A stretch of 48,882 nt of DNA, from NCBI GenBank assembly GCA_026196545.1, contig JAPHSZ010000128.1, positions 1 through 48,882 on the forward strand, in the 5' to 3' direction. This stretch comes from Gammaproteobacteria bacterium (lineage in GTDB: Bacteria > Pseudomonadota > Gammaproteobacteria > SZUA-229). The translations under genes were made by a program, and so were the position numbers. Of the stretch, positions 10,797-46,535 are shown piece after piece; the first letter of the stretch is position 1; every line of letters begins with the position of its first letter. The notes beneath the pieces were generated by a model that worked only from the letters and a program-made list of their open reading frames with translations, ran no database searches and was not told where the DNA came from.

Positions 10797-10819
10797 ATCA
10801 TAGCCCAGTACAATTACTG

Positions 10820-13800: not shown

Positions 13801-15784
13801 CAACAGCTGTACCATTAGTTGGTGCTGCTGGTGTTACCGTGACCAGAGCAGTGGCTGTAGCATCATCCTCAACATCGGTATCGTTAGCGACAACATTGAT
13901 ATTTTTCGTCACATCCTGCAACAACATGGTCAGACCAGTATCATCATTAGCAACAGGGCGTAGCGCAGTGACGTTCATCGTCATTGTTGCAGAGGTCACT
14001 GAATCACCGATACCATCATTAACAGAGAAAGTAAATGTATCGACACCATTAAAACCAGGGTCTGGTGTATAAGTCAGTGTGTCGTTAGGCGTAGAGGTTG
14101 TGCTCACAGCCACACTACCATTGGCAGCTGCACCAATACTAACAAATGACAGCGTATGACCATTAAGGTCATCCGCAATCACACCGCCCGTACCACCTTT
14201 ACCGGTGGTTTCCGCATTATCAGTGATAAGAATGACTTTTGCAGAACCTGCATCAGTCGTGAAATCTGAGTTATAAGCAACAGGCAAATCATTACCCACA
14301 GATGAAACGGTTACATCAACATTAGTCGCAGAGGATGTCGCACCATCACTGTCAGTAAGTGTGTAGGTAAAGGTGACTACCTCTTCGACAGCACCAGCTG
14401 TAAAGGTAACAGTGCCATCACCATTAGCTACTGCATTACCACTTGAGCCCTGCGCCAAAATAGCTATGGCACCGGTGTTCACACCTTCATTTAGAGTACC
14501 CGCAGCACCGTCTTCATAATCAGAGTCATTAGCTAATACATCGATAACAACGGCAACATTTGGTAAAGCACCACCCGTATCGGCAGCTGGCGTCGGCGTG
14601 GCATTATCCACACCAACACTGAAGGTCACAGTATTAGATTCATAACTGCTAGGATCAATCACCGTAATCGTGAAGGTATCATCTGCACTACCCTGCGTAT
14701 TAGTATTTGCTGGTGGTGTATAGCGCAGTGTATCGTTTGTTGCACTCGTCATTTCAACGGTAACGGTACCGCCAAGATCGGTAGGTGACTGTATGGTAGC
14801 AAATTGCAATGTATCGCCATCGCCATCATCTGCAATTACGCCACCTGTCCCGCCTTTACCCGTAGTATCAGCCGTATCGCCAATTAAAATATCCTTAACG
14901 ACACCTGCCGTTGTGGTGAAATCTGAAGCATAGGCAACCGGCGCATTGGTTACCGTAACGGTCACCGTGGTTTCACCTGAAGCCACACCACGACCATCAA
15001 CCACAGTGTAACCGAAAGTATCAACACCCGTTGTAGATGGGGTATAAGTAACTGTATTGTCAGTTTCCAGCACAACGCCACCGCCGGCTGTACCGGCTAC
15101 TGGTGTCGTCAGCGTTACAGCGCCTGTAACTGTGGCGCCCGAATAATCGGTATCGTTGGCACGCACATCGATGTTCGTTGAACCAGCACCAATCGCCATG
15201 GCCGCAGTATCATCTACAGCCGTTGGTGGCGTGTCAAAAGTAAAATTAAAGTTAGCATGATAGGTCAAGAACGGGCCATCAATCATACCCACGCCAAGAA
15301 TACCATCAGGACCTGAGGTTGGCCCACCTACAATCGGATCAGTACTCGTGTAAGTGGTCACACCCGTAACTGCATTTACGGTTACATTCCAAACATTAAC
15401 TACATCAATATCGGAATTAGCACCCCAGTTGAACAAAATATGGCCACCGACCTGACCAGCACCAACCTGAACGCCAGTGAATGAACCAGCTTGAACCGTA
15501 TCAAAACTATAGGTACCAGGGCCAAAAGTAGTGCCACTATGCGCTGTCCATATTGAGCCAAAGAAGGTAGTTGTTGAAGCGACTGACCATGCACCATCAC
15601 CAACTGTACCTGCAACGGTCGTATCTGGACTGCCTGGAAGCAAATTACCAGTACCATCATACATATAAAAATCTGCGTATGTCATGGTCTCTGCAGCTGA
15701 AGCGGATAATGATGCCAAAGATAGCAGCGAAGCTATCGCACATTTCTTTAAAACTGGCTTACTGATTTTTTCATTTAACATCAT
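10820..15784 (-). CDS. Giant secreted repeat adhesin-like protein: about 10 Ig/cadherin-like modules plus 3 copies of an unassigned domain, with a C-terminal sorting-type tail
   Basis: 1654 aa. SD GAGG 6 nt upstream of the ATG. Sec signal peptide (SLSASA|AE). Thr/Val/Asp-rich ~95-100-aa modules with VANDD...NDTD/NDSD..ED motifs. Three interleaved copies of the FFG..W.AH / GTYSF / DIDV..VW / DGPF..ANFNF domain. The tail is GGG-TM-RRRYRN. Confidence 0.9.
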   Translation of the reverse strand: MMLNEKISKPVLKKCAIASLLSLASLSASAAETMTYADFYMYDGTGNLLPGSPDTTVAGTVGDGAWSVASTTTFFGSIWTAHSGTTFGPGTYSFDTVQAGSFTGVQVGAGQVGGHILFNWGANSDIDVVNVWNVTVNAVTGVTTYTSTDPIVGGPTSGPDGILGVGMIDGPFLTYHANFNFTFDTPPTAVDDTAAMAIGAGSTNIDVRANDTDYSGATVTGAVTLTTPVAGTAGGGVVLETDNTVTYTPSTTGVDTFGYTVVDGRGVASGETTVTVTVTNAPVAYASDFTTTAGVVKDILIGDTADTTGKGGTGGVIADDGDGDTLQFATIQSPTDLGGTVTVEMTSATNDTLRYTPPANTNTQGSADDTFTITVIDPSSYESNTVTFSVGVDNATPTPAADTGGALPNVAVVIDVLANDSDYEDGAAGTLNEGVNTGAIAILAQGSSGNAVANGDGTVTFTAGAVEEVVTFTYTLTDSDGATSSATNVDVTVSSVGNDLPVAYNSDFTTDAGSAKVILITDNAETTGKGGTGGVIADDLNGHTLSFVSIGAAANGSVAVSTTSTPNDTLTYTPDPGFNGVDTFTFSVNDGIGDSVTSATMTMNVTALRPVANDDTGLTMLLQDVTKNINVVANDTDVEDDATATALVTVTPAAPTNGTAVAVLPADGTIDYTPTAVGVHTFTYTVTDSDALVSAAPATVTITVTAAPETLDVALATDEDVALTTISLPDPLIASDADGDALTFATFDATTTQGGSVTVNLANDTLTYTPAADFNGIDTFTYTVTDGTNTSSSATNTMTVTVAAVDDAMSCPAVNTTTAVDMPVTLTTSDLVGSCADADGAVTLLSYGQPAHGVVTDDGAGNLTYTPVTGFIGADSFDFTATDGAGGDTVFSATVVVSDDPSIHIITGGNFTMLDNTGGLVGGATNVTGVFDEKLICNAESCSDIAMTTPLASTQTFFGVNWTAHDARIFAPGTYSFDTNCGAADIASGTTNCGGGTPLIMTVPEGQLGAHMLFDYGATSDIDVAVLWEYNTSFGDPIYNGDDCATSGPNCDLTQTPTKQWNWASVDGDLNGIRGVAMVDGPFVGFHANFNFDMSAGYTPPVANDDNVGALPSTLITLDLINNDSDAEDGAPPAGVTLTLLTATSANGGTLVNNGDGTVDYTSSGLVIGDTDSFQYTIADAGGAVSRVATVNITITDNLAPVANDVAFTADEDVTLAINVTDTDTLGTAIGTDPDGDALTFATFSAATTQGGTVTVDATNTVLSYTSAADFNGTDTFTFTLNDGVADSYLATMTITVNPVNDAVVCSNVTLATGVDTPLTIVAATDLIAGCTDVEGDTISFVSATQPANAASSITNDGAGTLTYTPETGLSANDSFVFTATDGNGGDGTATATIQVGTVFGNFTMLDANGKVFGGTNDVVFTWDNTTHSSETDLVSNMTIVSDLPELFFGANWFAHHVRVFGPGTYSFEADNALCESKTASPDPGNGSTKTTNPGADDIDSTGCPGTGTATTISMTVAEGQLGVHMLFDYNGSFDIDVVNVWDIDGVWEDPDGAATTLNDLWDGAAGVAPDPTTTWALVSRDVNGDGVNGSPMIDGPFVGFYANFNDGPGGTAAPKEPITGTAPDTKLGGGTIGLVLLLGIVPVVSVFRRRYRN
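10823..10900 (-). other. C-terminal tripartite sorting-type tail of the giant protein (Gly-rich / TM / Arg-rich; GlyGly-CTERM-like rather than PEP-CTERM)
   Basis: Encodes GGGTIGLVLLLGIVPVVSVFRRRYRN. There is no VPxP/PEP motif directly before the helix; the nearest is KEP about 20 residues upstream. Confidence 0.5.
10964..11587 (-). repeat. Unassigned domain, copy 3 (giant protein aa ~1400-1607)
   Basis: FGNFTMLDANGK...FFGANWFAHHVRVFGPGTYSFE...GQLGVHMLFDYNGSFDIDVVNVW...MIDGPFVGFYANFND. Carries a Cys-containing insert. Boundaries are approximate. Confidence 0.7.
11588..12505 (-). repeat. Array of about 3 Ig/cadherin-like ~100-aa modules
   Basis: Repeated pattern PVANDD/NDSDAEDG...DGTVDYT...DSFQYT...ATVNITI and DGDALTFATF...GGTVTV...LSYTSAADFNGTDTFTFT. 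Confidence 0.65.
12506..13066 (-). repeat. Unassigned domain, copy 2 (giant protein aa ~907-1093)
   Basis: GGNFTMLDNTGG...FFGVNWTAHDARIFAPGTYSFD...GQLGAHMLFDYGATSDIDVAVLW...MVDGPFVGFHANFNFD. Boundaries are approximate. Confidence 0.7.
13067..15232 (-). repeat. Array of about 7 Ig/cadherin-like ~95-100-aa modules
   Basis: Recurrent motifs: VDD/ANDD...(A)NDTD(Y/V)...DGT(V/I)(T/D)YTP...G.DTF.YTV.D...TVTVTV. Two modules contain the near-repeat TTGKGGTGGVIADD. Confidence 0.65.
15233..15691 (-). repeat. Unassigned domain, copy 1 (giant protein aa ~32-184)
   Basis: FYMYDGTGN...FFGSIWTAHSGTTFGPGTYSFDTVQAGS...GQVGGHILFNWGANSDIDVVNVW...MIDGPFLTYHANFNFT. This is the closest copy to the domain of the 193-aa protein. 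Confidence 0.75.
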
Positions 15785-16338: not shown

Positions 16339-16920
16339 TTACGCAGCTTTTTTACGACGCGCCACACCAACTAAACCAAGCAGACCAGAACCGAACAACC
16401 ATACAGCTGCAGGTACAGGTACTGGGTTTGTGTCAAAGCTAAAGTTAGCCTCATAAGTCAGGAAAGGACCGTCGATCATGCCTGAACCAGGAGTGCCGTT
16501 AGGACCTGCAGGGTTACCCGCTACAACGTCAGTAGATGTGTATACACCAGCAGTAACATCCCAAACGTTAACTACGTCGATGTCTGAAGTAGCACCCCAG
16601 TTGAACAGGATGTGACCACCAATCTGACCAGCGCCTACTACAACACCAGTGATTGAACCAGCTTCAACTGTGTCAAATGTGTAAGTACCAGGACCAAAAG
16701 TAGTACCAGAGTGAGCAGTCCAGATTGAACCAAAGAAGGTCTGTGTTGAAGCCACGTCCCATGCGCCACCACCGATGTTGCCAGTTACAACTGTGTCAAC
16801 ATTGATCAATGCACCAGTACCATCGTACATGTCAAATGTAGCAGATGTCATTACAACAGCAGAAGCAGCTGAGCTACCCAGCGCTAAGGCTAAAGATAAA
16901 GCAATTCTTGATTTTTTCAT
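16339..16920 (-). CDS. Small PEP-CTERM protein: signal peptide, one copy of the unassigned domain, and a PEP-CTERM sorting signal
   Basis: 193 aa. SD GGAG upstream of the ATG. Signal peptide (GSSAASA|VV). The domain is closely similar by eye to giant-protein copy 1. The C-terminus PVPVPAAVWLFGSGLLGLVGVARRKKAA is a canonical PEP-CTERM. Own promoter candidate and own terminator, so monocistronic. Confidence 0.9.
   Translation of the reverse strand: MKKSRIALSLALALGSSAASAVVMTSATFDMYDGTGALINVDTVVTGNIGGGAWDVASTQTFFGSIWTAHSGTTFGPGTYTFDTVEAGSITGVVVGAGQIGGHILFNWGATSDIDVVNVWDVTAGVYTSTDVVAGNPAGPNGTPGSGMIDGPFLTYEANFSFDTNPVPVPAAVWLFGSGLLGLVGVARRKKAA
16342..16425 (-). other. Canonical PEP-CTERM exosortase sorting signal
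   Basis: VPVP motif, then a Gly-rich hydrophobic helix WLFGSGLLGLVGVA, then RRKK. Confidence 0.85.
16432..16854 (-). repeat. Unassigned domain, stand-alone copy (193-aa protein aa ~23-163)
   Basis: FDMYDGTGA...FFGSIWTAHSGTTFGPGTYTFDTVEAGS...GQIGGHILFNWGATSDIDVVNVW...MIDGPFLTYEANFSFD. Confidence 0.75.
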
Positions 16921-17007: not shown

Positions 17008-17023
17008 TGCACTTACTATGCCA
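17008..17023 (-). promoter_or_regulatory. Candidate sigma-54 (-24/-12) promoter for the 193-aa PEP-CTERM gene
   Basis: The minus strand reads TGGCATAGTAAGTGCA. GG and GC sit exactly 12 nt apart as in the consensus TGGCAC-N5-TTGCA. It lies about 88 nt upstream of the ATG. A sigma-54-dependent activator (prsR, with a GAFTGA motif) is encoded in the same locus. Confidence 0.45.
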
Positions 17024-17392: not shown

Positions 17393-19282
17393 ATGAACTC
17401 ACTACAATTAACCAAAAAACAACAGAAAATAGCCCACCTGATAGAAAAAGGTAAATTAAAAGAAGCCATCAAGCCCCTGCTCCAGCTATGTAAGTTACAG
17501 CCGGATAATACACAATTGTGGTTAAAACTGGCTTCACTTTATGGCCAGACTAATGATTTTCAGAGCGTTATTAAAGTTTGCCGCAAAATTGAGCCCACAC
17601 AACAACATAATCCTATCCTGCATTCCCTATTAGGCAATGCCTATGCCAGCCTGAACAACATGGAGAAGGCCCATGAATGTTATCAGCAGGCACTGGAGCT
17701 ACAGCCCAACGACCCTGGGCTTTTAAATAATCTTGGTAATGCCCTGTATCTGGATAACAAACTTGATGAAGCTGCAGAGATATTTCAACGTGTAATTACT
17801 CTCAGCCCCAACTATGCTGATGCCCATAATAATCTTGGCAATATATATAAAGCACTTAATGATGATCAGCTTGCTATAAAACACTACCAACAGGCGATAA
17901 AACTGAACCCCCACCTATATCAGACACAGTTAAATTTAGCCCATATGTTTGCGGATCGAATCGGACATCCGGAAATTGCTGAAGATTATTTTAGAAAAGC
18001 ACTGGCGATTGAGCCTGACAATATCGAGGCTTTAAGTGGGGTAAGCAATATGTTGCGTTACCAGGGAAAGCTGGATGAAGCACTGGACATGATCAAACAA
18101 ACCCAGCAAAAGTTTAAAAATGAACCTGGCCCTATTGCTGCCGAGGCCGATATTTATGAGCGTTCAGGAAATTATGATGGTGCCTACAAAATTATTCGAG
18201 ATATGTTGTGCGCTAAAACTGCGCCTCCTATGATTATCAATGTGTTCATGAGGATTTGCCATAGATACGACAGCTGCGATGAAGCGATTAGTGAGGCTGA
18301 AAAACTAACTAATAATACAACTATTAAAATAAGAGATTTGCAGGATACTCATTTTGGGCTTGGCAAACTTTATGACAAACAGAAAAAATATGATGACGCC
18401 TTTGCTCATTACAAAAAAGGCAACGAAGCACTTGATATTTATTTTGAGCCTGAGGTATTTAGAGCTCGCGTAGAAAACCTGATAACAACCTTTAATAAAG
18501 ACAATCTAAGCAAGCTTGCAAAGAGCAGCATTAATACTTCAAAACCCATTTTTATTCTTGGTATGCCGAGATCAGGTACCAGTCTGACCGAGCAGATTCT
18601 GTCCAGCCACCCTGAAGTCGATGGTGCCGGCGAATTGAATGATATAAATGACATTATGGGTAGCCTGTCTAAAACATTACAAAGTCCACTGCCCTACCCA
18701 CAATGCGTGACCTCACTAACTACCGATGCATGTAACCATATCGCCCAGGGTTATCTCAACAGACTCACTAATTTATGCGGAGACAACCGATTTATCACAG
18801 ATAAAATGCCACATAATTTTCTCAATATTGGCCTGATTTCACTATTATTTCCACAGGCCAAAATCATACATTGCGTACGTGATCCAAGAGATATTTGTCT
18901 ATCGATATTTTTTCAAAATTTTGGTTGGCTGCACCCTTATGGAACACGTTTAGACTGGTTAGGATCTTATTTTCAGGAATATGTACGCATTATGAAACAC
19001 TGGGAGCACTCGGTAGATATACCTGTTTACACCGTACGCTATGACGACATGGTCAATGATCAGGAAGCGACGACAAGAAATCTGCTAGCGCACTGCGGGC
19101 TTGAATGGAATGATGCCTGCCTGGACTTCCACAAGTCAGAGCGCGTGGTAGCGACCGCCAGCTATGACCAGGTTCGTCAGAAAATTTACACAAAATCTCA
19201 GGCTCGCTGGAAAAAATATGAAAAGCACATTGCCCCACTGGTTGAACATTTAGGCGATGCCCTTGATGGCTGGCCCAGTTAA
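17393..19282 (+). CDS. TPR-repeat sulfotransferase (N-terminal TPR array plus C-terminal PAPS-dependent sulfotransferase domain)
   Basis: 629 aa, no signal peptide. Multiple 34-aa TPR units (A..Y..AL.L.P). 5'-PSB loop ILGMPRSGTSLTEQIL at about 18551-18590. 3'-PB-like IIHCVRDPRDICLSIFFQ. Confidence 0.8.
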   Translation: MNSLQLTKKQQKIAHLIEKGKLKEAIKPLLQLCKLQPDNTQLWLKLASLYGQTNDFQSVIKVCRKIEPTQQHNPILHSLLGNAYASLNNMEKAHECYQQALELQPNDPGLLNNLGNALYLDNKLDEAAEIFQRVITLSPNYADAHNNLGNIYKALNDDQLAIKHYQQAIKLNPHLYQTQLNLAHMFADRIGHPEIAEDYFRKALAIEPDNIEALSGVSNMLRYQGKLDEALDMIKQTQQKFKNEPGPIAAEADIYERSGNYDGAYKIIRDMLCAKTAPPMIINVFMRICHRYDSCDEAISEAEKLTNNTTIKIRDLQDTHFGLGKLYDKQKKYDDAFAHYKKGNEALDIYFEPEVFRARVENLITTFNKDNLSKLAKSSINTSKPIFILGMPRSGTSLTEQILSSHPEVDGAGELNDINDIMGSLSKTLQSPLPYPQCVTSLTTDACNHIAQGYLNRLTNLCGDNRFITDKMPHNFLNIGLISLLFPQAKIIHCVRDPRDICLSIFFQNFGWLHPYGTRLDWLGSYFQEYVRIMKHWEHSVDIPVYTVRYDDMVNDQEATTRNLLAHCGLEWNDACLDFHKSERVVATASYDQVRQKIYTKSQARWKKYEKHIAPLVEHLGDALDGWPS

Positions 19283-19305
19283 AGCCAGGGTACTGGAATA
19301 TACAA

Positions 19306-21183
19306 ATGCAGGAAAATGTTAGACAAAAAGCTTTAAGACTTTTTCAACAGGGCCATTTCAACAAGGCACGTAGTCTGTACGAAAAAATGTGCAAAAAAAA
19401 TCCGCATGACGCTGAAGCCATGTATATGATTGGATCCATATATGGACAAACAGGCAACTACAAACGCGCTGCTCAGTATTTTAAGAGAACACTGAAACTG
19501 CAACCTGATGCATTTGTAGCTATATGTGGTCTTGCTGCTGCATACAAAAAACTAGGCGAACTCCCAGAAGCAGAAAAAATATTTAAGCAGGCATTAGATG
19601 TACAGCCCGACAATGCTGATTTATTGCTGGAAATAGCGGGTATCTATCTGCAACAAAATAAAATGAACGAAGCAGAGTCATCACTGGCAAAAATACTCTC
19701 AAAAGACCCCAGGAACGCTGAAGCGTTTTATGGACTAGGTGAAGTAGCACATTCACGTCAAAAAATTGATATCGCAGAGAACTATTATAAACAGGCCCTT
19801 GCTATTCAGCCTAAAAACGCTGAAACACACAATCGCCTGGGTCAAATAAAGTATACAAAAGGATTTCGTGACCTTGCTGTTAAATACTATGAAACAGCCA
19901 TCTCAATTCAACCAGACAACTCTGAATTCTGGAGAAATTTAGCGCAATCACAATTGGCGCTGGGGCAGCTCGATAAAGCACATGAATCAATTGATCAGGC
20001 TATAAAAATCAGCCCTAATGATATTGATGCTATTACAACAAAAGCTGGCATATATGAAAAGTCAGGCAATGCAGAAGCTTCCTACAAAACTATAAAACCT
20101 GTTTTAGACAAAAAAATATTAGACACGGGTATTGCTACAACTTATGCATCAATCTGCCATAAACTTGGTCAGTGTAATGAAGCTATTGAATATCTTGATG
20201 CAATTCAAAACAAATTGGACACTTCTAGTCATCTGCTACAATCATTTAATTATACAGTCGGTAAACTATTCGACAAGCTTGGAAACTATGATAGAGCTTT
20301 TAAACATTTTGAAGCAGCGAACAATGCAACTCCAAGTAATTTTTCTGCCATTGAGCATTCAGCTCTGATAGAGAGAATCATGCACGTTTTTAACTGGCAA
20401 TTCATGTCAACGACACCAAGGCCATCATCATTTAACAAAGAAGGTGCCGTATTTATCATTGGTATGCCTAGATCAGGAACATCACTGGTAGAACAAATTC
20501 TTGACAGTCATCCTGACATTTCAGGTGCAGGCGAATTATCAGATATATCAATAATTTCAAATGAAATAGTCAATGTTATAGATCCAGAGACAGGCTTCCC
20601 GGAGTGCTACAAAAAAATAACCAGCGACATACTTGAACAACACGCAAAGAAATATCTCGACAAATTATCCAGCATTTCTTCTGAATCACGTTACGTTACA
20701 GATAAAATGCCACAAAATTTCATATTTCTTGGTCTCATCGCCCTGATGTTCCCCAAAGCAAAAATAATACACTGCGTGCGAAACTCAATTGACACATGCC
20801 TGTCAATTTATTTCCAGCATTTTAATGAAAGCCACAACTATGCGACGCGTCTTGAGGATATTGCATCCTATTACAAGGAATATCGACGCTTAATGGCACA
20901 CTGGAAAATGGTTTTACCATTAACGATCCATGATATAAATTATGAAGAACTGGTAAACTCTCCTAAATCTCACATACATAGTTTGCTTAATTACCTTGAT
21001 CTTGACTGGAGTGATAACTGTCTTAACTTCCATAAATCGTCACGACATGTTCCAACTGCGAGCTATGACCAGGTAACTCGTTCCCTTTACACTAGTTCAC
21101 AGGGACGCTGGAAAAACTATAAAAATCATATTGCACCACTACTGGAATTACTATCATCTTTCAATCAGGAATCAAACATATGA
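19306..21183 (+). CDS. TPR-repeat sulfotransferase, tandem paralog
   Basis: 625 aa with the same architecture. IIGMPRSGTSLVEQIL, IIHCVRNSIDTCLSIYFQ, and C-terminal PTASYDQV...GRWKNYKNHIAPLLELL parallel to the upstream gene. Confidence 0.8.
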   Translation: MQENVRQKALRLFQQGHFNKARSLYEKMCKKNPHDAEAMYMIGSIYGQTGNYKRAAQYFKRTLKLQPDAFVAICGLAAAYKKLGELPEAEKIFKQALDVQPDNADLLLEIAGIYLQQNKMNEAESSLAKILSKDPRNAEAFYGLGEVAHSRQKIDIAENYYKQALAIQPKNAETHNRLGQIKYTKGFRDLAVKYYETAISIQPDNSEFWRNLAQSQLALGQLDKAHESIDQAIKISPNDIDAITTKAGIYEKSGNAEASYKTIKPVLDKKILDTGIATTYASICHKLGQCNEAIEYLDAIQNKLDTSSHLLQSFNYTVGKLFDKLGNYDRAFKHFEAANNATPSNFSAIEHSALIERIMHVFNWQFMSTTPRPSSFNKEGAVFIIGMPRSGTSLVEQILDSHPDISGAGELSDISIISNEIVNVIDPETGFPECYKKITSDILEQHAKKYLDKLSSISSESRYVTDKMPQNFIFLGLIALMFPKAKIIHCVRNSIDTCLSIYFQHFNESHNYATRLEDIASYYKEYRRLMAHWKMVLPLTIHDINYEELVNSPKSHIHSLLNYLDLDWSDNCLNFHKSSRHVPTASYDQVTRSLYTSSQGRWKNYKNHIAPLLELLSSFNQESNI

Positions 21184-21896
21184 GTACCGCTCTGCCCAGG
21201 GTTAATTTTTTTGGGATACCCATATCCACTTATAAATTAAATATTTTTCTCTCAATTTGCGGCATTTATCTACTGGGCATCTTTCTAACATGGTATCTAA
21301 CAGGCATTTTTAAAATACCATTACCTGACGACGTAGCCCTCAGATCATTATCAACAGCTATTCTGCAAACAGTATGTGTAATCATTATTCCTTATTTTTG
21401 GGCAATTAAAAGACTCAAGTTCTCACTACAAGATCTTGGCATTACTACTAAAAAAATTGGCCAATCGACACTTCTTGGCTGCAGCCTGTACTCTTTGGCA
21501 TTAGCCGCATTTATCTATAGCTCATCTGATCCACTAATAAGCAATCATGCAATTAGAACAATGGAGCTGGCTGACGCCTCAACCCTGCTGCTTTCAATGT
21601 CTATCATCGCTGCAGGTACAGATATAGCGACACGTGGTTTTATACTTTTTACACTCGCCAAATTTACTAATTTACCCCTTGCCATTTTTCTACAAAATGC
21701 CGCCTGGTTTTTTGGACACGTTGGCGAAATCAATCTTCTTCAAAATGCTCTTGGCCTCTGGGCAGCGATAGGATTAACACTAATACTTGGAATACTGGGA
21801 GATGTCATTGCATTAAAAACTCGAAATATTGTGGGCCTGGCTATTGCTCATATCCTACTGAATGTCGTATTAACTTTTTATATACGCAGCTTGTAA
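21180..21896 (+). CDS. CPBP (CAAX protease/Abi)-family membrane protein with a non-canonical motif 1
   Basis: 238 aa, about 6-7 TM helices. Motif 2-like WFFGH and motif 3 AHILLN are present. Motif 1 reads TDIATR (21618-21635) where EExxxR is expected. Its ATG overlaps the upstream TGA (ATGA at 21180-21183). Confidence 0.6.
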   Translation: MSTALPRVNFFGIPISTYKLNIFLSICGIYLLGIFLTWYLTGIFKIPLPDDVALRSLSTAILQTVCVIIIPYFWAIKRLKFSLQDLGITTKKIGQSTLLGCSLYSLALAAFIYSSSDPLISNHAIRTMELADASTLLLSMSIIAAGTDIATRGFILFTLAKFTNLPLAIFLQNAAWFFGHVGEINLLQNALGLWAAIGLTLILGILGDVIALKTRNIVGLAIAHILLNVVLTFYIRSL

Positions 21897-21920
21897 TCTT
21901 AAATATTTTCTGACAACCAT

Positions 21921-24191
21921 CTAGCTCATCCTGCTTGCACTCCGACACCACCAGATAATAAGTGCTGAAAATAAAAACATTCCCATTGCAGCTTGCACGA
22001 TAATTCCAAGATTAAATTCAATCAACATATATTGGGAAATAATTACACCTATAACCACACCAACCGACGACATATACCATATCCAGAACCAGACGCTTGG
22101 ATGAAATTTTTGTGTATACGAAGTAGATTGATAATGCACCAAACCCGAACAAAATGAAAACATCACAACTAAAGCAAATATTAATATTTTAGTACTGACA
22201 CCTAGTAAAACCTCAATATCCTGCTCCATACCTAAAAGAACAAAAACGCCTAAAAGCAAAATAACAAGGAAGAGCCATATCTCATTAATACCTTTTGATA
22301 TTATTTTGCCCGCCCTTGTATATGCATAAGGAAAAACAAAAGCAGCTAGCGCAAGTACAATTAAAAAAGAAATAGAAAAATACGAATATCCTAGTGAAGC
22401 TGAAGAAAAAATGGCTGTAGCATAAAGAAGCAAAATAAAAGCAACCACACTGAGAAGAGAATGAAACAATAATATAGATATTACTGGAGAACTTTGTTTT
22501 TCGACTTTATTCAAAGTTCGCATTTTTTGATGCGAGAAAAGCAACCCATATAAACTTACAATGAAAAATAGTGCCGATAAGCCAGCAACAAATGGATGTA
22601 AACCGACAGCCAAATGAAAATAATTTGGCTTAATAATGCTGGATGGCTCAAGATTTATTAGTTTTTTATATTTCCAGCTAGAGGCCCTGGTCAAGTGCAA
22701 AGTCGCATCAGATACTGTAATTCTGTTTAGCTGCTTAAAAAACCTGTAAGGAGGTATATTGTTATTCGCATCGTATATTACCTTCATGATCGGTGCAGAA
22801 TCAATAAGGCGATTTAATGCCTTCAGCTCCTCAGCAGTAAATCTCTGTTTTGAAACTAGTACAAGATAATTATAAGTATCCTTGTACGAAGAATTCTTAT
22901 CAATCTGTAAAACTCGTATATTATTTCTAAAATTTGTTATTTTATCACCAGGATTTTCTGACACCATGCGCCACACATAACTCAGGGCCTTATGCAACAT
23001 GACCTGATCACGAACATTAACAGCCAGCAATCCATTTGTATTAAGTTTATCGTATAGTTTTTTAAAAAACTCAATCGTATAAATAGACTCATGTGAAGCA
23101 GCAGCTCCTATATATGGCTCAGCCACTTGATTAAGTATAGATAGTGAAACAAGATCGTAATTCTCATCAGAATCAATTACTTTCTTTAACCTAGAATTTA
23201 AATCTGAACGGTCACAGTTCATTTCCTTTTTGAAAGAAACACAGTCGTCATAAATGGATGTAGTTTCTGCCCCATACAGTTGTTGAGAAACATCTATCTC
23301 AGGTCCTCTTACGGCAGCAACAGTCAATACTTTTGATGGTTTTTTAAGATCAAAAGGCATCATTACCAACGGATAATGCTTATTCCACCATAAAATGTTT
23401 TCTTGTGTTTTATCGGTAAATGGAACTGAGTTGCTTGCATTATATATTGCCCAGAAATAGTCCTCATTTCGACTTCGTCTTGATGAAACAAGATCAACTC
23501 TGCCACTCGCTCCCCAGATAGTTTTCTCAACAGAACGATAATATCGATCAGGATCATGCAACATGTTTATTGCATGCTTAGTTACTGGATTACCTGATAA
23601 TGACCATTTTGTTATTTGATCGCCTGGGCTACCAGCATCTTCTGCAAACACACCTCCTCCAAGAAACATGAACAGAGCCAATGCTTTTGTGAACACAGAA
23701 ATATTTTTCATCAAAAAAATACTCAGCGTCAATGCTGCAGACGAAAGAACAAAGACCATCCAAATACCATTATTCGCAGTAACAATGAATGATGTTGTCA
23801 TACCTATAACAAAACCAACAAATGAAAGTAACATGCGTATTCTTATTGGTATTGCGTTACTATTATTAGCAACAAATACTGCCAACAATATAACTGGAAA
23901 AATGGTACATAATAAAGCAGTAAAGTAGCTTAGCACGTTCACAAAATTGATAGCATACAATGAATAACTAGATGCAATTAAAAGAAACAATGCAGTCAAT
24001 ATAAACAAATTATAATTTATCTTAACTTTGCTCCTACACATAGCAATACCGATAAGGCATGATGCAATTTCTAATGAAATTGCGGTAACAACAAACTCAT
24101 AGCCAAGATGCAGGTTAATGTAAAAATTCAAACCCAGACAATAAAGTCCAAGCGATATTGAGGCAATTAATACGTTTATCATATACAACAT
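21921..24191 (-). CDS. Polytopic membrane protein (TM block, ~360-aa soluble domain, TM block) with a spermidine-synthase-like central domain
   Basis: 756 aa. About 6 N-terminal and 7 C-terminal hydrophobic helices. The central region has a SpeE-like pattern: KVLTVAAVRGPEID in place of VLIIGGGDGG, and YDLVSLSILN...IYTIEFFKKLYDKLNTNGLLAVNV matching the fDvIivD...lyt.eFy...L.pgGil pattern. Fold assignment rests on motif pattern only. Confidence 0.4.
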   Translation of the reverse strand: MLYMINVLIASISLGLYCLGLNFYINLHLGYEFVVTAISLEIASCLIGIAMCRSKVKINYNLFILTALFLLIASSYSLYAINFVNVLSYFTALLCTIFPVILLAVFVANNSNAIPIRIRMLLSFVGFVIGMTTSFIVTANNGIWMVFVLSSAALTLSIFLMKNISVFTKALALFMFLGGGVFAEDAGSPGDQITKWSLSGNPVTKHAINMLHDPDRYYRSVEKTIWGASGRVDLVSSRRSRNEDYFWAIYNASNSVPFTDKTQENILWWNKHYPLVMMPFDLKKPSKVLTVAAVRGPEIDVSQQLYGAETTSIYDDCVSFKKEMNCDRSDLNSRLKKVIDSDENYDLVSLSILNQVAEPYIGAAASHESIYTIEFFKKLYDKLNTNGLLAVNVRDQVMLHKALSYVWRMVSENPGDKITNFRNNIRVLQIDKNSSYKDTYNYLVLVSKQRFTAEELKALNRLIDSAPIMKVIYDANNNIPPYRFFKQLNRITVSDATLHLTRASSWKYKKLINLEPSSIIKPNYFHLAVGLHPFVAGLSALFFIVSLYGLLFSHQKMRTLNKVEKQSSPVISILLFHSLLSVVAFILLLYATAIFSSASLGYSYFSISFLIVLALAAFVFPYAYTRAGKIISKGINEIWLFLVILLLGVFVLLGMEQDIEVLLGVSTKILIFALVVMFSFCSGLVHYQSTSYTQKFHPSVWFWIWYMSSVGVVIGVIISQYMLIEFNLGIIVQAAMGMFLFSALIIWWCRSASRMS

Positions 24192-24290
24192 ATTTTAGTG
24201 CCTATTTGATCCTGTTTCTTATTCTTCTCAAAGATTGGCCTTTTATTATTCATATACTTCCTGACAAATGTAAGTCGCTAATACTCATAC

Positions 24291-26153
24291 TCATGAGTGA
24301 CTCTTCCAAATCCTTTGATATTCATTTTCTAACGATACCACAAAAGCCCTACCATCAAATAATATAGATTTTTGAAGATAATCACGTTGCCTGTCTCTGT
24401 TATATTTAAGCAGGTCAGTATTTTTAGCCAAGCTGGCTGCCTTATCGATATATTCTTCCTCGCTATTAGTGATCAAGTCTTTCTGATTGACTGCAGTTAG
24501 CAAACTAGCGCCTACTCTTGCAGCATGATAATCACCACATAATGCAACAACTGGCACTCCCATCCATAATGCTTCGCATGTTGTCGTCGTCCCATTATAA
24601 GGAAAGGTATCTAATGCAATATCAATTTTGTCATATAACGACAAATGCTCATTTCGTGTAGGGGTGTGTCCAATTAAATTAATGCGATTACCCTCTATTC
24701 CAAACTGCTGAAATTTCTTAATATATGTTTCTCTGGTTTTTAAATCAGTCAGTGATGGGTTCTTCACAAGCAATTTACTATCTGGCAATCGTTTGAGTAT
24801 TCTGCACCAAACATCTATCACCTTATCGTTTATTTTTGCTAAATTATTAAATGAACCAAAAGTAATAAATCCATTTTGAATAACTGGCGGCTCAGATACA
24901 TCTGGTGAATTATCATCTGGTTTGTATGTCAAAAAACACTCTGGCAATCGACAGAGTTCTTCGCTGTAGAATATATCCTGCCCTTCAGGATCGGCAATAG
25001 CATCAGTAATTCGATACTGGATAGCCTTCATGCCTGTTGTGTTAGGATAACCTAAATATGTAATTTGTACCGGAGCTGGTTTTTTTGCAAATGCCAATAG
25101 TGCATTACTAGCTGTATGCCCTGTAAGATCAACCATAATATCTATCTCATCTGACTTTACAGCGTCAGCCAATTCACTGTCCGTCATAACAGAGGCATCA
25201 CGCCATACATCAAAGAAGCCTTTTAGTCGTGCTGTTACAGCATCTTCCTTTTTTGAAGAATAATAAGCATATGTCTTGAATTTGTTCTTATCGTGATATT
25301 CAATTATAGGTTCAATGAAATAAGCCACTGAATGCTCACGAAAATCTGGTGAATAATAACCTATACGCAAGACTTCCTTATTTTTATCACATGCATGATG
25401 CGCTATATAATTTAAAGGGTTATCAAAAGTATCGCCCCATTTGTTATGCTCATCATACAGCTCCTGCTGACTAACATCTTCCATATAGTTAAGTGTCAGA
25501 AGCAAATTAGAGAATACTCGTGTATTTTTAGGTTGCTTAATAAGGCCAGCACGATATACTTCTATAGATTCTTTGTAGCGCCCCTGTGAGACAAGGACAC
25601 TTCCAAGATTATCATATATGTTCAAGCTCGGATTTAACTGTAGCGCCTTTCGGTAACACGCCTCTGCCCTGCTTAACTCACCCTGTGCCTGATAGACACT
25701 ACCCAGATTTGAATGTGTTTCCGGCTGACCTGGATTTATTCTTAGTGACCTGCCAAATGTCTCTATTGCTTTTTCATGATCATTTAACATCATGTATACA
25801 TGTGCTAAACAATCCAGCTTTTGAGTATTTTCAGAATCCTTTAAAAGTGATTTTTTGAACGCATTAGCGGCTGCCAGGTAGTCACCAGAGTCTCTTAATG
25901 CAATTCCATAGTTATATAAGATGGAGGAGTCGTCTGGTTTTATCTCCAATGATTTTTTAAAGAATTCAGCAGCTTTTACATGTTCATTTCTAAAACCTTC
26001 TACGTACCCCCTATATAACCAAATCTCTGCATCTCGTGGAGCCTTGCGTGCAAGTTGAATTAGTATTTTTTCTGCTGAATCAAAATCATTATTTTCAATA
26101 AATTGCTTTACCTTTTTTAACTTTGACCTGTGAAGAATATTACTTTTTGCCAT
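24291..26153 (-). CDS. TPR-repeat glycosyltransferase, GT41 (O-GlcNAc transferase/SPINDLY-like)
   Basis: 620 aa, no signal peptide. About 6 N-terminal TPR units. C-terminal motifs IGYYSPDFREHSVAYF, ITYLGYPNTTGM and LDTFPYNGTTTTCEALWMGVPVV are characteristic of bacterial OGT-like proteins. Confidence 0.8.
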   Translation of the reverse strand: MAKSNILHRSKLKKVKQFIENNDFDSAEKILIQLARKAPRDAEIWLYRGYVEGFRNEHVKAAEFFKKSLEIKPDDSSILYNYGIALRDSGDYLAAANAFKKSLLKDSENTQKLDCLAHVYMMLNDHEKAIETFGRSLRINPGQPETHSNLGSVYQAQGELSRAEACYRKALQLNPSLNIYDNLGSVLVSQGRYKESIEVYRAGLIKQPKNTRVFSNLLLTLNYMEDVSQQELYDEHNKWGDTFDNPLNYIAHHACDKNKEVLRIGYYSPDFREHSVAYFIEPIIEYHDKNKFKTYAYYSSKKEDAVTARLKGFFDVWRDASVMTDSELADAVKSDEIDIMVDLTGHTASNALLAFAKKPAPVQITYLGYPNTTGMKAIQYRITDAIADPEGQDIFYSEELCRLPECFLTYKPDDNSPDVSEPPVIQNGFITFGSFNNLAKINDKVIDVWCRILKRLPDSKLLVKNPSLTDLKTRETYIKKFQQFGIEGNRINLIGHTPTRNEHLSLYDKIDIALDTFPYNGTTTTCEALWMGVPVVALCGDYHAARVGASLLTAVNQKDLITNSEEEYIDKAASLAKNTDLLKYNRDRQRDYLQKSILFDGRAFVVSLENEYQRIWKSHS

Positions 26154-26185
26154 TATATTTAAAATGAATAGTTACAAAATAAAAA

Positions 26186-28138
26186 CTATCGTTTTCGTAT
26201 AAAAGATCTTGCCAAAATTAACGTAAATGTCAGACATAGAATTCGTAATAAATCAATCGAGCCAGAATCGCTTGACGATTTCGGCTTGATCGGCATACCA
26301 CCTATGACAGAAATTTTCCCATTCACTGTCATATCTGCATCTCCTCGTCCACCATCTCTAATAATAAGTTCGAGCACACTTCCTGTGAATTCAGTTCCTG
26401 AAGATGTTGCAAATACAGCATTACCAATTATTACTGCACCTGTTTCACCATCATAATCAAAATCAAACCAGTGTTGAGTTGGATTATCGGCTGTTCCCCC
26501 ATACATATAGTATGCACTTGGAATTAAACCTGCAGGCAATATGATACCTACTTCGAGTAGCTGCCCCGGAGCAACTCCTTCAACAATGAAGTCAAACACT
26601 CCTGATCCTATTTTCACATCAGCTGGCATTTCAACCATATCTGTTGATTGTAATGCCGTCATATTCCTGAAGTTATAACCACTATCAGTTAAGTATGTTA
26701 CATAGTTTCCGTAAGCATCAATTAATGTTGCAACATTGCTCTGTCTGCTATCTAGAATATCATCGTTATTTCCATCACCATTATTTGGTCCTAAATCTTC
26801 AATCTCGGCCAACACACCATCATCCTCACCGGCAGCAGTTCCTCTTATTTGAATATTAAACAGTGCCTCATCTGGATCATTTGAAACAATAGAAACCGTC
26901 GCGTCCTTAACACCAGGCGTTAATGGTTTAAACTCAATTATTATTCCACATGATTGGCCTGGCTGTATTGTAACAGCACAGGCATCATCACCATCCACAT
27001 TAACAACTGCCGCATCTTGCCCAATTACAGTAATTGATGAAATATCTAAATCCTGCGTACCCTTATTCTCAATCAAAATCACAGGAATTAAGCTACCAGT
27101 GGGTGGAAATATATATGGTAAATCTGCACTTTCAAGGACATCAACATTACCAAAATTAACACTCGAAAATGAAACATTAATATCTGGCTCATTCACCGCT
27201 AGTCCGCCTACTCCATATAATGAAACCTCATAGCTAATGCCAAGGCTAATAATTTCAATATTAAAACTATCTTCATAAACACCTTCTGACTCAGGTGAAA
27301 ACAAAACCATAAATGAACATTGATCACCAGGCTGAATAACAGAGTTAGCACATCCAACATCAACAACATTAAATGGAGGCAACACAGGGTTATTGTCACT
27401 AATACCGCCGATTAGTATTGCATCACCACCTGTGTTTCTTATCGTAATTTCTGGTTGAACACTACTGCCTGATGTCACGATGCCATAATTAATATCAGAG
27501 GTAATAGTAAACAACTCTGTCATTTGTTTTATCTGCACAAGGTTATCAGTCTGAATAGGGTCAGATATATAATCAATTAATGGAAGTTGTCCAAATGCAG
27601 TATCAATATCAGTACGTCCATCTATAGGATGGTTCGCAATTGTGTCAATCGTCTGCATACCATCATTCAATACTTCACCAAACACTGTATACCCAGAATC
27701 AAGTGAAGATGAATTATCTACTAGATTAATAAACCATTGACTTGTTGCACTATCTGGATCTCCTAGTGTTGCCATAGCAATAGTGCCTCTTAAATTTGAT
27801 AACCCAAGCTCATTGGAAATAGCAGGCTGTTCAGGTATGGCTGAAAAACTAGTTAAGAAATCAGAATTGTTTGGATCATAATTATAGCCGCCTCCCTGAA
27901 TAACAAAACCAGGTACGCTTCGATGTATAAAACTATTATCATAACTACCAGAAAGCATATAGCTCATATAATTGCTAACAGTAACTGGCTTGTCTGTATC
28001 GTATAATCTTAGATCAACGGTATCTTCATCTACTCCTTGCTGTATATTTAAACGTACAACCGTATCTGCATGAGATAGATTTACCATCAGCATTGGTAAT
28101 ATCAAAAAAATTAAACGGATAATTGAAGTTCTAAACAT
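26186..28138 (-). CDS. Secreted multidomain cyclophilin-type peptidyl-prolyl isomerase with a C-terminal sorting-type tail
   Basis: 650 aa. Signal peptide (VNLSHA|D). Cyclophilin motifs FIHRSVPGFVIQGGG, RGTIAMATLGDPDSATSQWFINL and YTVFGEV (aa ~26-195). Two ~100-aa ASH/HYDIN-like beta modules resembling choice-of-anchor D (NTGGDAILIGGIS...PGDQCSF...; NKGTQDLDISSITV...PGQSCGI...SNDPDE). A further domain carries DGGRGDADMTVNG. The tail is SGS-TM-RKR. Confidence 0.8.
   Translation of the reverse strand: MFRTSIIRLIFLILPMLMVNLSHADTVVRLNIQQGVDEDTVDLRLYDTDKPVTVSNYMSYMLSGSYDNSFIHRSVPGFVIQGGGYNYDPNNSDFLTSFSAIPEQPAISNELGLSNLRGTIAMATLGDPDSATSQWFINLVDNSSSLDSGYTVFGEVLNDGMQTIDTIANHPIDGRTDIDTAFGQLPLIDYISDPIQTDNLVQIKQMTELFTITSDINYGIVTSGSSVQPEITIRNTGGDAILIGGISDNNPVLPPFNVVDVGCANSVIQPGDQCSFMVLFSPESEGVYEDSFNIEIISLGISYEVSLYGVGGLAVNEPDINVSFSSVNFGNVDVLESADLPYIFPPTGSLIPVILIENKGTQDLDISSITVIGQDAAVVNVDGDDACAVTIQPGQSCGIIIEFKPLTPGVKDATVSIVSNDPDEALFNIQIRGTAAGEDDGVLAEIEDLGPNNGDGNNDDILDSRQSNVATLIDAYGNYVTYLTDSGYNFRNMTALQSTDMVEMPADVKIGSGVFDFIVEGVAPGQLLEVGIILPAGLIPSAYYMYGGTADNPTQHWFDFDYDGETGAVIIGNAVFATSSGTEFTGSVLELIIRDGGRGDADMTVNGKISVIGGMPIKPKSSSDSGSIDLLRILCLTFTLILARSFIRKR
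26189..26278 (-). other. C-terminal tripartite sorting-type tail of the cyclophilin protein (Ser/Gly motif, TM, basic cluster)
   Basis: SSSDSGSIDLLRILCLTFTLILARSFIRKR. No PEP motif. The class cannot be assigned without HMMs. Confidence 0.4.
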
Positions 28139-46525: not shown

Positions 46526-46535
46526 TCGTACGCTT

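Follow-up and report, generated by a model that had tools for sequence, protein, structure and literature searches.

Introduction

Exosortase/PEP-CTERM systems are widespread in environmental and wastewater bacteria, where they drive the formation of flocs and biofilms. The locus described here lies on a 48.9-kb contig of a gammaproteobacterial metagenome-assembled genome (MAG; contig JAPHSZ010000128.1). The whole contig, 48,882 nucleotides, was analysed and is called the window. With the described PEP-CTERM/exosortase exopolysaccharide (EPS) loci (Haft 2006) it shares the exosortase XrtD, VPLPA-CTERM cargo, PrsK, PrsR, a PrsT-like protein, a chain-length determinant, a tyrosine kinase, and export and outer-membrane proteins. 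Six further genes stand between the cargo genes and prsR, at positions 17393-28138. They encode two sulfotransferases with tetratricopeptide repeats (TPRs), a CPBP membrane protein (CPBP-23x), a 756-aa protein with 14 transmembrane (TM) helices, a TPR glycosyltransferase of family GT41 and a surface protein with a cyclophilin domain. The region belongs to an accessory module that is conserved among exosortase-type surface-protein/EPS loci and is without description in the sources searched. The locus in the window is of the XrtD/VPLPA-CTERM type; related loci hold PEP-CTERM cargo.

The surrounding exosortase system is known. The module is absent from the NCBIfam models that score these proteins, from Haft 2006 and from the other literature searched. 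CPBP-23x, the 14-TM protein, the TPST-like TPR-sulfotransferases and TPR-GT41 are not mentioned in those papers, neither the papers nor the models tie their families to exosortases, and no tie between GT41 and exosortase cargo was found in that literature. Unlike the components of described loci, the TPR-sulfotransferases and TPR-GT41 receive no exosortase-associated NCBIfam name, CPBP-23x has only a sub-threshold NCBIfam match and the 14-TM protein has none. Related loci of a Thiobacillus type carry EpsD and TIGR03008 genes beside the module, as curated PEP-CTERM/exosortase loci do.

Several described systems offer points of comparison. Many PEP-CTERM proteins look heavily glycosylated (Haft). 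CPBP enzymes process C-terminal signals in dedicated one-to-one systems (Haft preprint). According to one account, HMW1C-type GT41 enzymes glycosylate adhesins (PMC10507012). The fungal protein NHMT (AN4663) joins seven TM helices to a SpdS-like enzyme and methylates the N-terminus of secreted lytic polysaccharide monooxygenases (PMC10349129). Against this background, the module provides named candidates for the modification of cargo, its attachment and its crossing of the outer membrane: two TPST-like sulfotransferases, a SPINDLY-like GT41 enzyme, an atypical CPBP protein, a SpeE-fold membrane protein and a FadL-like barrel.

Gene content of the region

The six genes are arranged as follows.

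17393-19282, plus strand: ST1, 629 aa, TPR array and TPST-like sulfotransferase domain, predicted cytoplasmic; 'distal' orthogroup
19306-21183, plus strand: ST2, 625 aa, TPR array and TPST-like sulfotransferase domain, predicted cytoplasmic; 'proximal' orthogroup, next to the CPBP gene
21180-21896, plus strand: CPBP-23x, 238 aa, CPBP/Rce1-like membrane protein (PF02517, 29.2 bits)
21897..21920, no strand: convergent gap of 24 nt between stop codons, in which a search found no terminator-like hairpin
21921-24191, minus strand: 14-TM protein, 756 aa, predicted as seven TM helices, a periplasmic SpeE-fold domain (~185-531) and seven TM helices
24291-26153, minus strand: TPR-GT41, 620 aa, SPINDLY/OGT-like glycosyltransferase, predicted cytoplasmic
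26186-28138, minus strand: cyclophilin/choice-of-anchor protein, 650 aa, exported, with Pro_isomerase and choice-of-anchor D and U domains

A first-pass annotation, made from the sequence alone, had proposed this layout, and a scan of open reading frames (ORFs) agrees exactly with its coordinates, including the 24-nt gap and the 4-nt ATGA overlap between the ATG of CPBP-23x and the TGA of ST2. The stop codons of other convergent loci lie 0-84 nt apart. Pfam and NCBIfam back most of its domain calls. The SpeE-like domain that it saw in the 756-aa protein is right at the level of the fold, as profile comparison, AlphaFold and Foldseek agree; its count of about 13 TM helices gives way to 14 in the model. 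The two sulfotransferases are indeed paralogues (36% identity over full length), and these proteins and TPR-GT41 do lack a signal peptide, their N-termini being hydrophilic. The context that it listed (cargo genes, prsRKT and a gene of the 3'-phosphoadenosine 5'-phosphosulfate (PAPS) pathway) was recovered as VPLPA-CTERM cargo, a 1654-aa repeat protein, PrsR, PrsK, a PrsT-like protein and a fused PAPS synthase.

Other statements need correction. The locus had been taken for an XrtA locus. The exosortase scores as XrtD (TIGR04152, 574.9 bits, cut-off 400) and stays under the cut-off of the XrtA model (TIGR03109, 177.2 bits, cut-off 208), so that the locus belongs to the XrtD/VPLPA-CTERM type; proteins ending in VPLPA-CTERM signals accompany the exosortase. 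Of the six families, the first-pass annotation named only the CAAX/CPBP-related one as listed with such loci before. A peptidyl-prolyl isomerase (PPIase) family, EpsD (TIGR02925), is already curated in PEP-CTERM loci, and CPBP-23x is not the listed CAAX/CPBP family: against TIGR03008 (pepcterm_CAAX, cut-off 81 bits) it gives no match at E <= 0.01.

Conservation in other loci

Searches with the 14-TM protein or the CPBP protein led to related contexts, viewed with flanks of up to 10 kb; one of these two core genes was the route of ascertainment for half of the loci. A further 22 loci came from a metagenome scan. All loci were searched with hidden Markov models built during the analysis, and after clustering of the CPBP proteins at 90% identity, 19 non-redundant CPBP loci spanned 4.5 kb or more. 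The contexts, ordered by the identity of their 14-TM protein to that of the window, are these.

L001-L006, 14-TM protein 45-56% identical: CPBP and one to three TPR-sulfotransferases; often TPR-GT41, PrsK/PrsR-like, PAPS synthase and PepA-like VPLPA-CTERM genes
L007-L009, about 20% identical: the same genes plus FadL-like, Poly_export and Wzz genes
L010, Thiohalobacter thiocyanaticus, 18% identical: four VPLPA-CTERM genes, two sulfotransferases and CPBP, the last converging on an 804-aa homologue of the 14-TM protein (E = 5e-22) that is preceded by TPR-GT41; FadL-like and Poly_export genes
L011-L015, Thiobacillus type, 15-16% identical: PEP-CTERM genes, then CPBP, 14-TM, FadL/OmpA and TPR-GT41 genes in one direction, followed by EpsD, TIGR03008 and a BBP2_2 barrel

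The counts over the 19 non-redundant loci are as follows.

14-TM gene: 18 of 19, within 200 nt of CPBP in 16
GT41: 14 of 19
TPST-like sulfotransferase: 14 of 19
FadL-like barrel: 9 of 19
VPLPA-CTERM ORF: 8 of 19

Every context reached from 14-TM homologues holds a CPBP gene, at most 200 nt away in all but one cluster, together with TPR-sulfotransferases, TPR-GT41 or both. The sole informative locus without a 14-TM gene, L035, is a contig dense in overlapping ORFs with a partial CPBP match. In distant loci, identity to the window is 53-58% for CPBP, 41-51% for GT41, 40-50% for the FadL-like barrel and 15-22% for the 14-TM protein. On beta- and gammaproteobacterial contigs alike, module orthologues (15-78% identity) remain neighbours of one another and of cargo, PrsK/PrsR-like and EPS export genes. 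The order of the genes is shuffled: convergent in Thiohalobacter and in window-like contigs, co-directional (CPBP, 14-TM, FadL, GT41) in the Thiobacillus type. Linkage kept at such low identity across lineages, despite rearranged order, points to selection.

CPBP and the 14-TM protein form the widely conserved core, which TPR-GT41, TPST-like sulfotransferases and a FadL-like porin usually accompany. VPLPA-CTERM/PEP-CTERM cargo, PrsK/PrsR-like proteins, PAPS synthase, Wzz/Poly_export, EpsD and TIGR03008 flank it. The six-gene module of the first-pass annotation thus survives as a conserved cluster and not as a fixed set of six. Its suggested check, synteny with exosortase/PEP-CTERM-type genes in relatives, came out in its favour, the linkage being retained. 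Since the module occurs in the cultured Thiohalobacter thiocyanaticus and in Thiobacillus-named assemblies, genetics and mass spectrometry are feasible. In Thiohalobacter thiocyanaticus a rhomboid-family gene (L010 18593-19183, minus strand) has the FadL-like/442-aa genes on one side and the polysaccharide export gene on the other, which places a second type of intramembrane protease in that neighbourhood.

The envelope pair

CPBP-23x matches PF02517 at 29.2 bits, over the gathering cut-off of 22.4. The curated CPBP models all score far under their cut-offs, MrtA reaching 27 bits against a cut-off of 200. A profile search returned at least 185 homologues at 49-78% identity, including proteins of the cultured Thiohalobacter thiocyanaticus and of Thiobacillus MAGs. 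Orthologues remain 70-77% identical among contigs whose 14-TM proteins share merely 45-56%. One Thiobacillus-type locus (L011) carries a genuine TIGR03008 protein (263 bits) in addition to its CPBP-23x gene.

The residues T147, D148, R152, Q172, N173, H180, E183, H224 and N228 are invariant. Across 15 diverse members the canonical EExxxR motif is replaced by an invariant T147-D148-x-x-T151-R152, which aligns to MEELFWR of the true TIGR03008 protein. Motif 3, HxxxN, is kept as H224 and N228. The histidine position of motif 2 (FxxxH) aligns to the invariant Q172-N173, on an alignment at 21% identity, and the family-specific invariant pair H180/E183 lies seven residues downstream of it. Judged by these residues, CPBP-23x is a distinct, highly conserved CPBP subfamily with a predicted non-canonical active site. 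It resembles the Rce1/CPBP family in being a multi-pass protein that exceeds the PF02517 threshold and keeps HxxxN. It also resembles dedicated CPBP sorting systems, in that its gene lies beside proteins with C-terminal sorting signals. Unlike the signals of myxosortases (MrtC, MrtJ and others), those neighbouring signals have no invariant Cys.

The 14-TM protein has no Pfam or NCBIfam match, and an exact-sequence look-up gave no record. Eleven close homologues were found among 5.8 billion clustered proteins, and an exhaustive profile search brought the family to 61 cluster representatives. With the 11 close homologues alone, the profile matched nothing in PDB and the AlphaFold model was poor (pLDDT 54). 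Adding distant members from the exhaustive search produced both a PDB profile match and a confident model. A profile of 43 family members matches spermidine synthases (1uir_A, E = 1.7e-8), the AlphaFold model reaches a pLDDT of 88.8 and a pTM of 0.91, and its best 42 Foldseek matches are all spermidine synthases. The model places 7 + 7 TM helices around a SpeE-fold domain at about residues 185-531. Loops on one face of the membrane hold 15 K/R and those on the other 0; over the 43 family sequences the counts are 618 and 72. On this positive-inside difference, the SpeE-fold domain is predicted to face the periplasm. It has an invariant Cys pair in the clade of the window, and Cys counts are mostly even across the family.

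Aligned to 1uir, the window clade reads VLTVAAVRGPE, TSIYDDC and SLSILNQ at the SpeE motif positions. It lacks the Gly-rich loop (GxG[DE]G) that binds decarboxylated S-adenosylmethionine (dcSAM), the acidic residue after beta2 and the catalytic D-x-x-D-P. Distant members retain GxGGGxD and VE(I/V)NP, and one of them reaches Spermine_synth (E = 0.0013); D-x-x-D-P is missing in all aligned family sequences inspected. With cofactor and catalytic motifs lost and the domain predicted to be periplasmic, aminopropyl transfer by the protein is unlikely; the domain more probably serves for binding or has a divergent catalytic activity. The fold is that of SpeE (PF01564) and of fused MFS/spermidine synthase proteins, N-terminal beta-hairpin domain and Rossmann-like domain included. 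Unlike SpeE, the domain sits between two TM bundles and is predicted to be extracytoplasmic, where dcSAM is not expected. The family has no Pfam or NCBIfam model of its own, and its SpeE fold is one that topology prediction places outside the cytoplasm.

The closest precedent of known function that the searches gave for the 14-TM protein is NHMT, in which a 7-TM bundle is joined to a SpeE/SpdS-fold domain. The 14-TM protein differs from NHMT in having a second 7-TM bundle after the domain, in the predicted periplasmic position of the domain and, in the window clade, in the lack of the Gly-rich S-adenosylmethionine loop and other cofactor-binding residues. A further analogy comes from CAAX processing, where cleavage by Rce1 is followed by methylation by ICMT. 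The pairing of a CPBP protein with a membrane-embedded methyltransferase-fold protein recalls that sequence of steps, although the fold of ICMT differs from the SpeE fold.

The C-terminal TM half of the family gives a faint MFS-like signal (6s7v_A, E = 0.15). One lineage has a second 14-TM paralogue of 849 aa (L008 14355-16904, plus strand; L009 9469-12018, plus strand), which matches MFS_1 faintly and Spermine_synth, and which sits between the first 14-TM copy and CPBP. This paralogue may represent a less degenerate ancestral state.

The cytoplasmic enzymes

ST1 and ST2 score 158 and 150.6 bits against Sulfotransfer_3 (Pfam PF13469; threshold 27). In a profile comparison with PDB, the nearest solved structures of ST1 are protein tyrosine sulfotransferases (E = 5e-8), and TPST1/2 are the only matches of ST2 at E < 0.001 (1.5e-9). 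The PAPS-binding loops and the catalytic Glu of ST1 line up with TPST. The PAPS motifs of the TPR-sulfotransferases, aligned to TPST, are GMPRSGTS for the 5'-phosphosulfate-binding (5'-PSB) loop and RDPRD/RNSID...S for the 3'-phosphate-binding (3'-PB) motif. ST1 and ST2 share with TPST1/2 a PF13469 catalytic domain with 5'-PSB loop, 3'-PB motif and catalytic Glu. They differ from these Golgi-lumenal enzymes in their N-terminal TPR array of about 370 aa and in their predicted cytoplasmic location, and local similarity is merely about 25-30%. That protein tyrosine sulfotransferases are nearest favours protein substrates for the TPR-sulfotransferases.

Positional orthologues of ST1 are 53-74% identical, Thiohalobacter included, and those of ST2 43-50%. 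The two proteins thus define orthogroups (43-74% within a group, 33-36% between) that keep fixed positions as far as Thiohalobacter, which implies, on sequence grounds, an old duplication with non-redundant roles. Two other genes of the window bear on sulfation.

34194..35927, minus strand: fused sulfate adenylyltransferase/adenosine 5'-phosphosulfate (APS) kinase (NF004040, 793 bits), PAPS supply for sulfotransferases
46515..47420, plus strand: ST3, stand-alone carbohydrate-type sulfotransferase (Sulfotransfer_1, E = 4.5e-16), in a block of glycosyltransferase and flippase genes

The ATP-sulfurylase/APS-kinase fusion was also found in L001. The nearest structures of ST3 are 3rnl and heparan-sulfate 3-O-sulfotransferases, and on this likeness it is likely to be the EPS sulfotransferase. 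Since ST3 and the fused ATP-sulfurylase/APS-kinase share the locus, a sulfated exopolysaccharide, independent of the TPR-sulfotransferases, is predicted. ST3 overlaps the end of a GT4 gene. The Thiobacillus-type loci L012-L015 have no TPR-sulfotransferase; a short Sulfotransfer_1 gene (216-237 aa) comes right after TPR-GT41 (~17.4-18.0 kb in L012), so that some sulfotransferase accompanies the module even there.

TPR-GT41 has a TPR array and scores 182.7 bits against Glyco_transf_41 (PF13844; threshold 25). Its PDB matches are SPINDLY (4e-100), T. terrenum OGT (2e-84) and human OGT (2e-44). The match is strong, and the architecture, TPR plus GT41, is that of the O-fucosyltransferase SPINDLY and of bacterial OGT. 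All GT41 structures matched (SPINDLY, OGT, XcOGT and HMW1C/NGT) are named as protein glycosyltransferases or adhesin-modifying enzymes. The NGT equivalog model gives 49 bits, far under its cut-off of 1000. Orthologues at 41-68% identity occur in L001, L003, L007, L010, L011 and L012.

Surface proteins and the outer-membrane barrel

The 650-aa protein has a signal-peptide-like N-terminus and matches Pro_isomerase (PF00160) at 107.5 bits (threshold 21.7), choice_anch_D at 92.8 bits (two copies, ASH-like Ig) and choice_anch_U at 37.7 bits; it ends in a TM helix and a basic tail. Orthologues in L003, L004 and L006 keep the choice-of-anchor D/D/U domains and are without the cyclophilin domain. By this comparison the cyclophilin is a lineage-specific addition to a putative choice-of-anchor D/U surface protein. 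All four proteins share a C-terminal tail, S-x-[DS]-[LF]-[LF]-[QR]-[IL]-L...LAR, which is not recognized as VPLPA-CTERM and has no invariant Cys. A choice-of-anchor protein is annotated in the close clade of the window (L003-L006), its gene directly upstream of the 14-TM gene in L004, L005 and L006. None is annotated near CPBP and the 14-TM protein in Thiohalobacter, Thiobacillus-type or L007 loci; L008 has a weak choice-of-anchor U match. Thiobacillus-type loci carry instead the parvulin-type PPIase EpsD (TIGR02925, 285 bits). A periplasmic PPIase is thus a known feature of such loci, and in the window a protein of another fold seems to provide it: unlike EpsD, the PPIase of the window is a cyclophilin fused to a surface protein.

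The genes on the low-coordinate side of the region encode the cargo and a recurrent outer-membrane neighbour.

9330..10721, minus strand: FadL/Toluene_X-like outer-membrane barrel (Pfam Toluene_X, E = 1.1e-22), recurrent neighbour of the module
10820..15784, minus strand: secreted giant protein, 1654 aa, with three PepA-like domains among tandem-95 repeats (NCBIfam tand_rpt_95, 306 bits, nine stretches)
16339..16920, minus strand: PepA-like VPLPA-CTERM cargo, 193 aa, predicted XrtD substrate (TIGR03370, 31.2 bits, cut-off 25.35; floc_PepA sub-threshold)

In L001, L002, L003, L008 and L010 the cargo has orthologues whose VPVPAAVWLFGSGLLGLVGVARRKK tail is nearly invariant. VPLPA-CTERM proteins lie beside the module in L001, L002 and L010, and score below the cut-off in L003 and L008. 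An acidic-flanked Tyr in the cargo was considered as a sulfation site and dropped, the DMYDG of the window not being conserved. The three PepA-like domains of the giant protein are 66%, 34% and 30% identical to the 193-aa cargo. Its C-terminus consists of a TM helix and an RRR tail and is recognized by no CTERM model. The giant protein looks like a multi-domain relative of the small floc protein, with a putative variant anchor.

Homologues of the FadL-like barrel, 40-50% identical, adjoin the module in L007, L008, L010, L011 and L012. By analogy with PorV in type IX secretion, the barrel may be an outer-membrane shuttle for exosortase cargo. A weak match to the PorV family is also seen, and the Thiobacillus-type barrel carries a fused OmpA-like domain.

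A proposed cargo-maturation model and its alternatives

The analysis directly established gene content, homology, fold, predicted topology and conserved linkage. From these we infer substrates, an order of events and catalytic competence, and favour, with evenly balanced confidence, a two-layer module for the maturation of cargo. The cytoplasmic layer would consist of the two anciently duplicated TPR-sulfotransferases, fed by the PAPS synthase of the locus, and of the SPINDLY/OGT-type TPR-GT41. (i) In the cytoplasm, the TPR enzymes would bind the precursors of PepA-like VPLPA-CTERM proteins and of the giant PepA/tandem-95 protein while these are still unfolded. (ii) They would O-sulfate and O-glycosylate these precursors ahead of Sec export, as HMW1C-type GT41 enzymes, which work in the cytoplasm before export, do with adhesins. 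The envelope layer would consist of the slowly evolving CPBP protein with its altered active site and a fast-evolving 14-TM partner that presents a SpeE-fold domain to the periplasm; it would often add the FadL-like barrel and, in the lineage of the window, the anchored choice-of-anchor D/U protein with its cyclophilin. (iii) After export, the CPBP/14-TM pair would bind or process the cargo at the inner membrane beside XrtD. (iv) The PPIase would assist with the Pro-rich sorting motif and (v) the FadL-like barrel with surface delivery. Sulfation of EPS would be left to the separate, carbohydrate-type ST3. Should the TPR-sulfotransferases act on protein, this would be a rare case of bacterial protein sulfation, tied to a sorting pathway.

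Several points weigh against this model. Outside the sorting signal, no Tyr, Ser or Thr is invariant in the aligned PepA-like cargo, and Sec substrates are not usually modified in the cytoplasm. What a sulfotransferase acts on can be judged only poorly from its nearest solved structure, since structures are available for few of the bacterial PF13469 enzymes that sulfate glycans or lipids. Proteolysis by CPBP-23x is uncertain, as the canonical Glu-Glu is gone and the motif-2 His probably is too. With its motifs lost in the window clade, the SpeE-like domain may, like the CPBP protein, be non-catalytic. The first-pass idea of protein-directed enzymes is accordingly upheld in sequence likeness, TPST and SPINDLY/OGT being nearest, and weakened for catalysis in these two proteins. 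TPR-sulfotransferases are absent from Thiobacillus-type loci and GT41 from some loci, which makes the cytoplasmic and envelope layers separable. Exosortase genes lie beyond the 10-kb flanks of most related loci, so that the linkage to exosortase systems runs through cargo, regulators and EPS genes and not through xrt itself. The 14-TM and CPBP alignments were also scanned against species-representative genomes, and neither scan gave relatives.

The strongest rival, which we consider unlikely, is that the module tailors EPS. The TPR-sulfotransferases would act on lipid-linked repeats or nascent polymer, with their TPRs docking on Wzx, Wzy or Wzc; GT41 would add a sugar or prime the carrier; and the 14-TM protein would be transporter- or polymerase-like. 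Characterized bacterial sulfotransferases mostly work on glycans or lipids, and the module lies inside an EPS locus with PAPS synthase, a Wzz-like protein, a tyrosine kinase, Poly_export, a WecA-like primer and GT4. The faint MFS-like signal of the 14-TM family, the MFS/Spermine_synth paralogue in L008 and a cargo without a conserved modifiable residue fit this account as well. Yet a carbohydrate-type enzyme, ST3, already stands among the glycosyltransferases and the flippase. The exclusive likeness of the ST2 domain to protein tyrosine sulfotransferases at E < 0.001, their first rank among the matches of ST1 and the protein- or adhesin-directed names of all GT41 structures matched also speak for a different substrate, and in every lineage the module genes adjoin cargo genes and CPBP rather than the glycosyltransferase block.

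A bolder form of the cargo-maturation model appears to us decidedly improbable. CPBP-23x and the 14-TM protein would form a new envelope machine that chemically finishes exported exosortase cargo, in the manner of Rce1 with ICMT or of NHMT. The two TPR-sulfotransferases and GT41 would then be the first dedicated system of Tyr/Ser sulfation and O-glycosylation for bacterial surface proteins. The envelope machine could modify or present the amine or terminus for the transpeptidation step of the exosortase. The TPR arrays would recognize the shared C-terminal sorting signal, or unfolded precursors, ahead of export.

A regulatory role is quite doubtful. Here a non-proteolytic CPBP protein, comparable with S. 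aureus SpdC or streptococcal Abx1, would sense the status of the envelope or EPS together with the 14-TM protein and modulate PrsK; the TPR enzymes would modify regulators or machinery, for instance the bacterial tyrosine kinase (BY-kinase). CPBP proteins that regulate histidine kinases are known. The altered yet invariant CPBP motifs (TDxxTR, QN) are what would be expected of a scaffold with a conserved interface, and the periplasmic SpeE-like domain, its cofactor motifs lost, could be a ligand-binding sensor. In the window, L001 and L004 the module directly abuts prsR/prsK. Elsewhere this contact breaks down: in Thiohalobacter and Thiobacillus-type loci no prsK/prsR-type pair directly adjoins CPBP and the 14-TM gene, whose neighbours are cargo, FadL-like and GT41 genes, and the L012 family has an unrelated pair of sigma-54 activator and PilS-like kinase about 6 kb away. 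The rapid divergence of the 14-TM protein (15-22% identity, against 53-58% for CPBP) is easier to reconcile with a substrate that varies than with a kinase partner that is conserved.

Very improbable, in our judgement, is a myxosortase-like role, in which the CPBP protein would be a sorting protease dedicated to the neighbouring choice-of-anchor D/U protein, helped by the 14-TM protein as cofactor; the tail of the choice-of-anchor protein would then act as a new sorting signal. One-to-one C-terminal processing by CPBP enzymes has precedent (Haft preprint), the 650-aa protein and its orthologues share a conserved tripartite tail that is not seen as VPLPA-CTERM, and the choice-of-anchor gene directly precedes the 14-TM gene in three loci. 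The low rating reflects the confinement of the choice-of-anchor protein, as annotated, to the close clade L003-L006, distant loci keeping CPBP and the 14-TM protein without an annotated one. Moreover, myxosortase signals have an invariant Cys and this tail has none, CPBP-23x is without the canonical catalytic Glu, and the MrtA score falls far short of its cut-off.

Chance clustering of unrelated genes in a variable genomic island is scarcely credible: the EPS part does have a G+C content of 0.33-0.39 against 0.41-0.47 in the housekeeping part, as in a mosaic island, and gene content does differ between loci, but the linkage is kept at 15-58% protein identity across Thiobacillus-, Thiohalobacter-, Chromatiales- and Gammaproteobacteria-named contigs despite reordering, CPBP and 14-TM genes are adjacent in 16 of the 19 informative non-redundant loci, and the divergence of the loci speaks against copies of one recently transferred island.

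A pathway resembling that of ribosomally synthesized and post-translationally modified peptides (small precursor, modification, cleavage by CPBP, export) was also considered and set aside; no conserved small ORF stood out in the called-gene lists.

Surrounding locus and regulation

The low-coordinate side of the module begins with the housekeeping genes secDF, ctaB and mfd, followed by the FadL-like barrel, the 1654-aa tandem-95 protein and the 193-aa VPLPA-CTERM protein. On the high-coordinate side come PrsR, PrsK, the PrsT-like TPR protein, the fused PAPS synthase, the tyrosine kinase, a Wzz-like chain-length determinant, an outer-membrane protein, the export protein (Poly_export), a WecA-like primer and XrtD. 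Beyond XrtD lie GT4 enzymes, the stand-alone sulfotransferase and a Wzx-like protein. The exosortase, the regulators and a candidate promoter element are located as follows.

17009..17023, minus strand: sigma-54-like -24/-12 element TGGCAT-N5-GTGC, about 90 nt upstream of the cargo gene; pattern match with two mismatches
28220-29575, minus strand: prsR, two-component regulator and sigma-54 activator (TIGR02915, 691.7 bits), flanking the module
29631-31700, minus strand: prsK, two-component regulator (TIGR02916, 735 bits), flanking the module
42356..43933, minus strand: exosortase XrtD fused to an EpsI domain, sorting enzyme for VPLPA-CTERM

In L001 and L004 the module is likewise flanked by genes that share the domain architecture of prsR and prsK. 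A second sigma-54-like element, TGGTAT-N5-TTGC (45366-45380, minus strand), lies about 140 nt upstream of the GT4/xrtD operon. The consensus search over the whole window gave 51 matches against 45 +/- 7 in shuffled sequences, that is, no excess, so that the two elements are distinguished by their position; it found no site upstream of the plus-strand operon. The positions of the two elements suggest possible control by PrsR.

G+C content is 0.41-0.47 in the housekeeping part of the window (1-16000: secDF, ctaB, mfd and the giant protein) and 0.33-0.39 over the module and the EPS/XrtD locus (16000-48882). This drop suggests a compositionally distinct, possibly acquired island. A 462-aa ORF (3344-4732, minus strand), antisense-adjacent to ctaB, has a weak Pfam match to COX1 (haem-copper oxidase subunit I) and belongs to no NCBIfam family; it bears no relation to the module.

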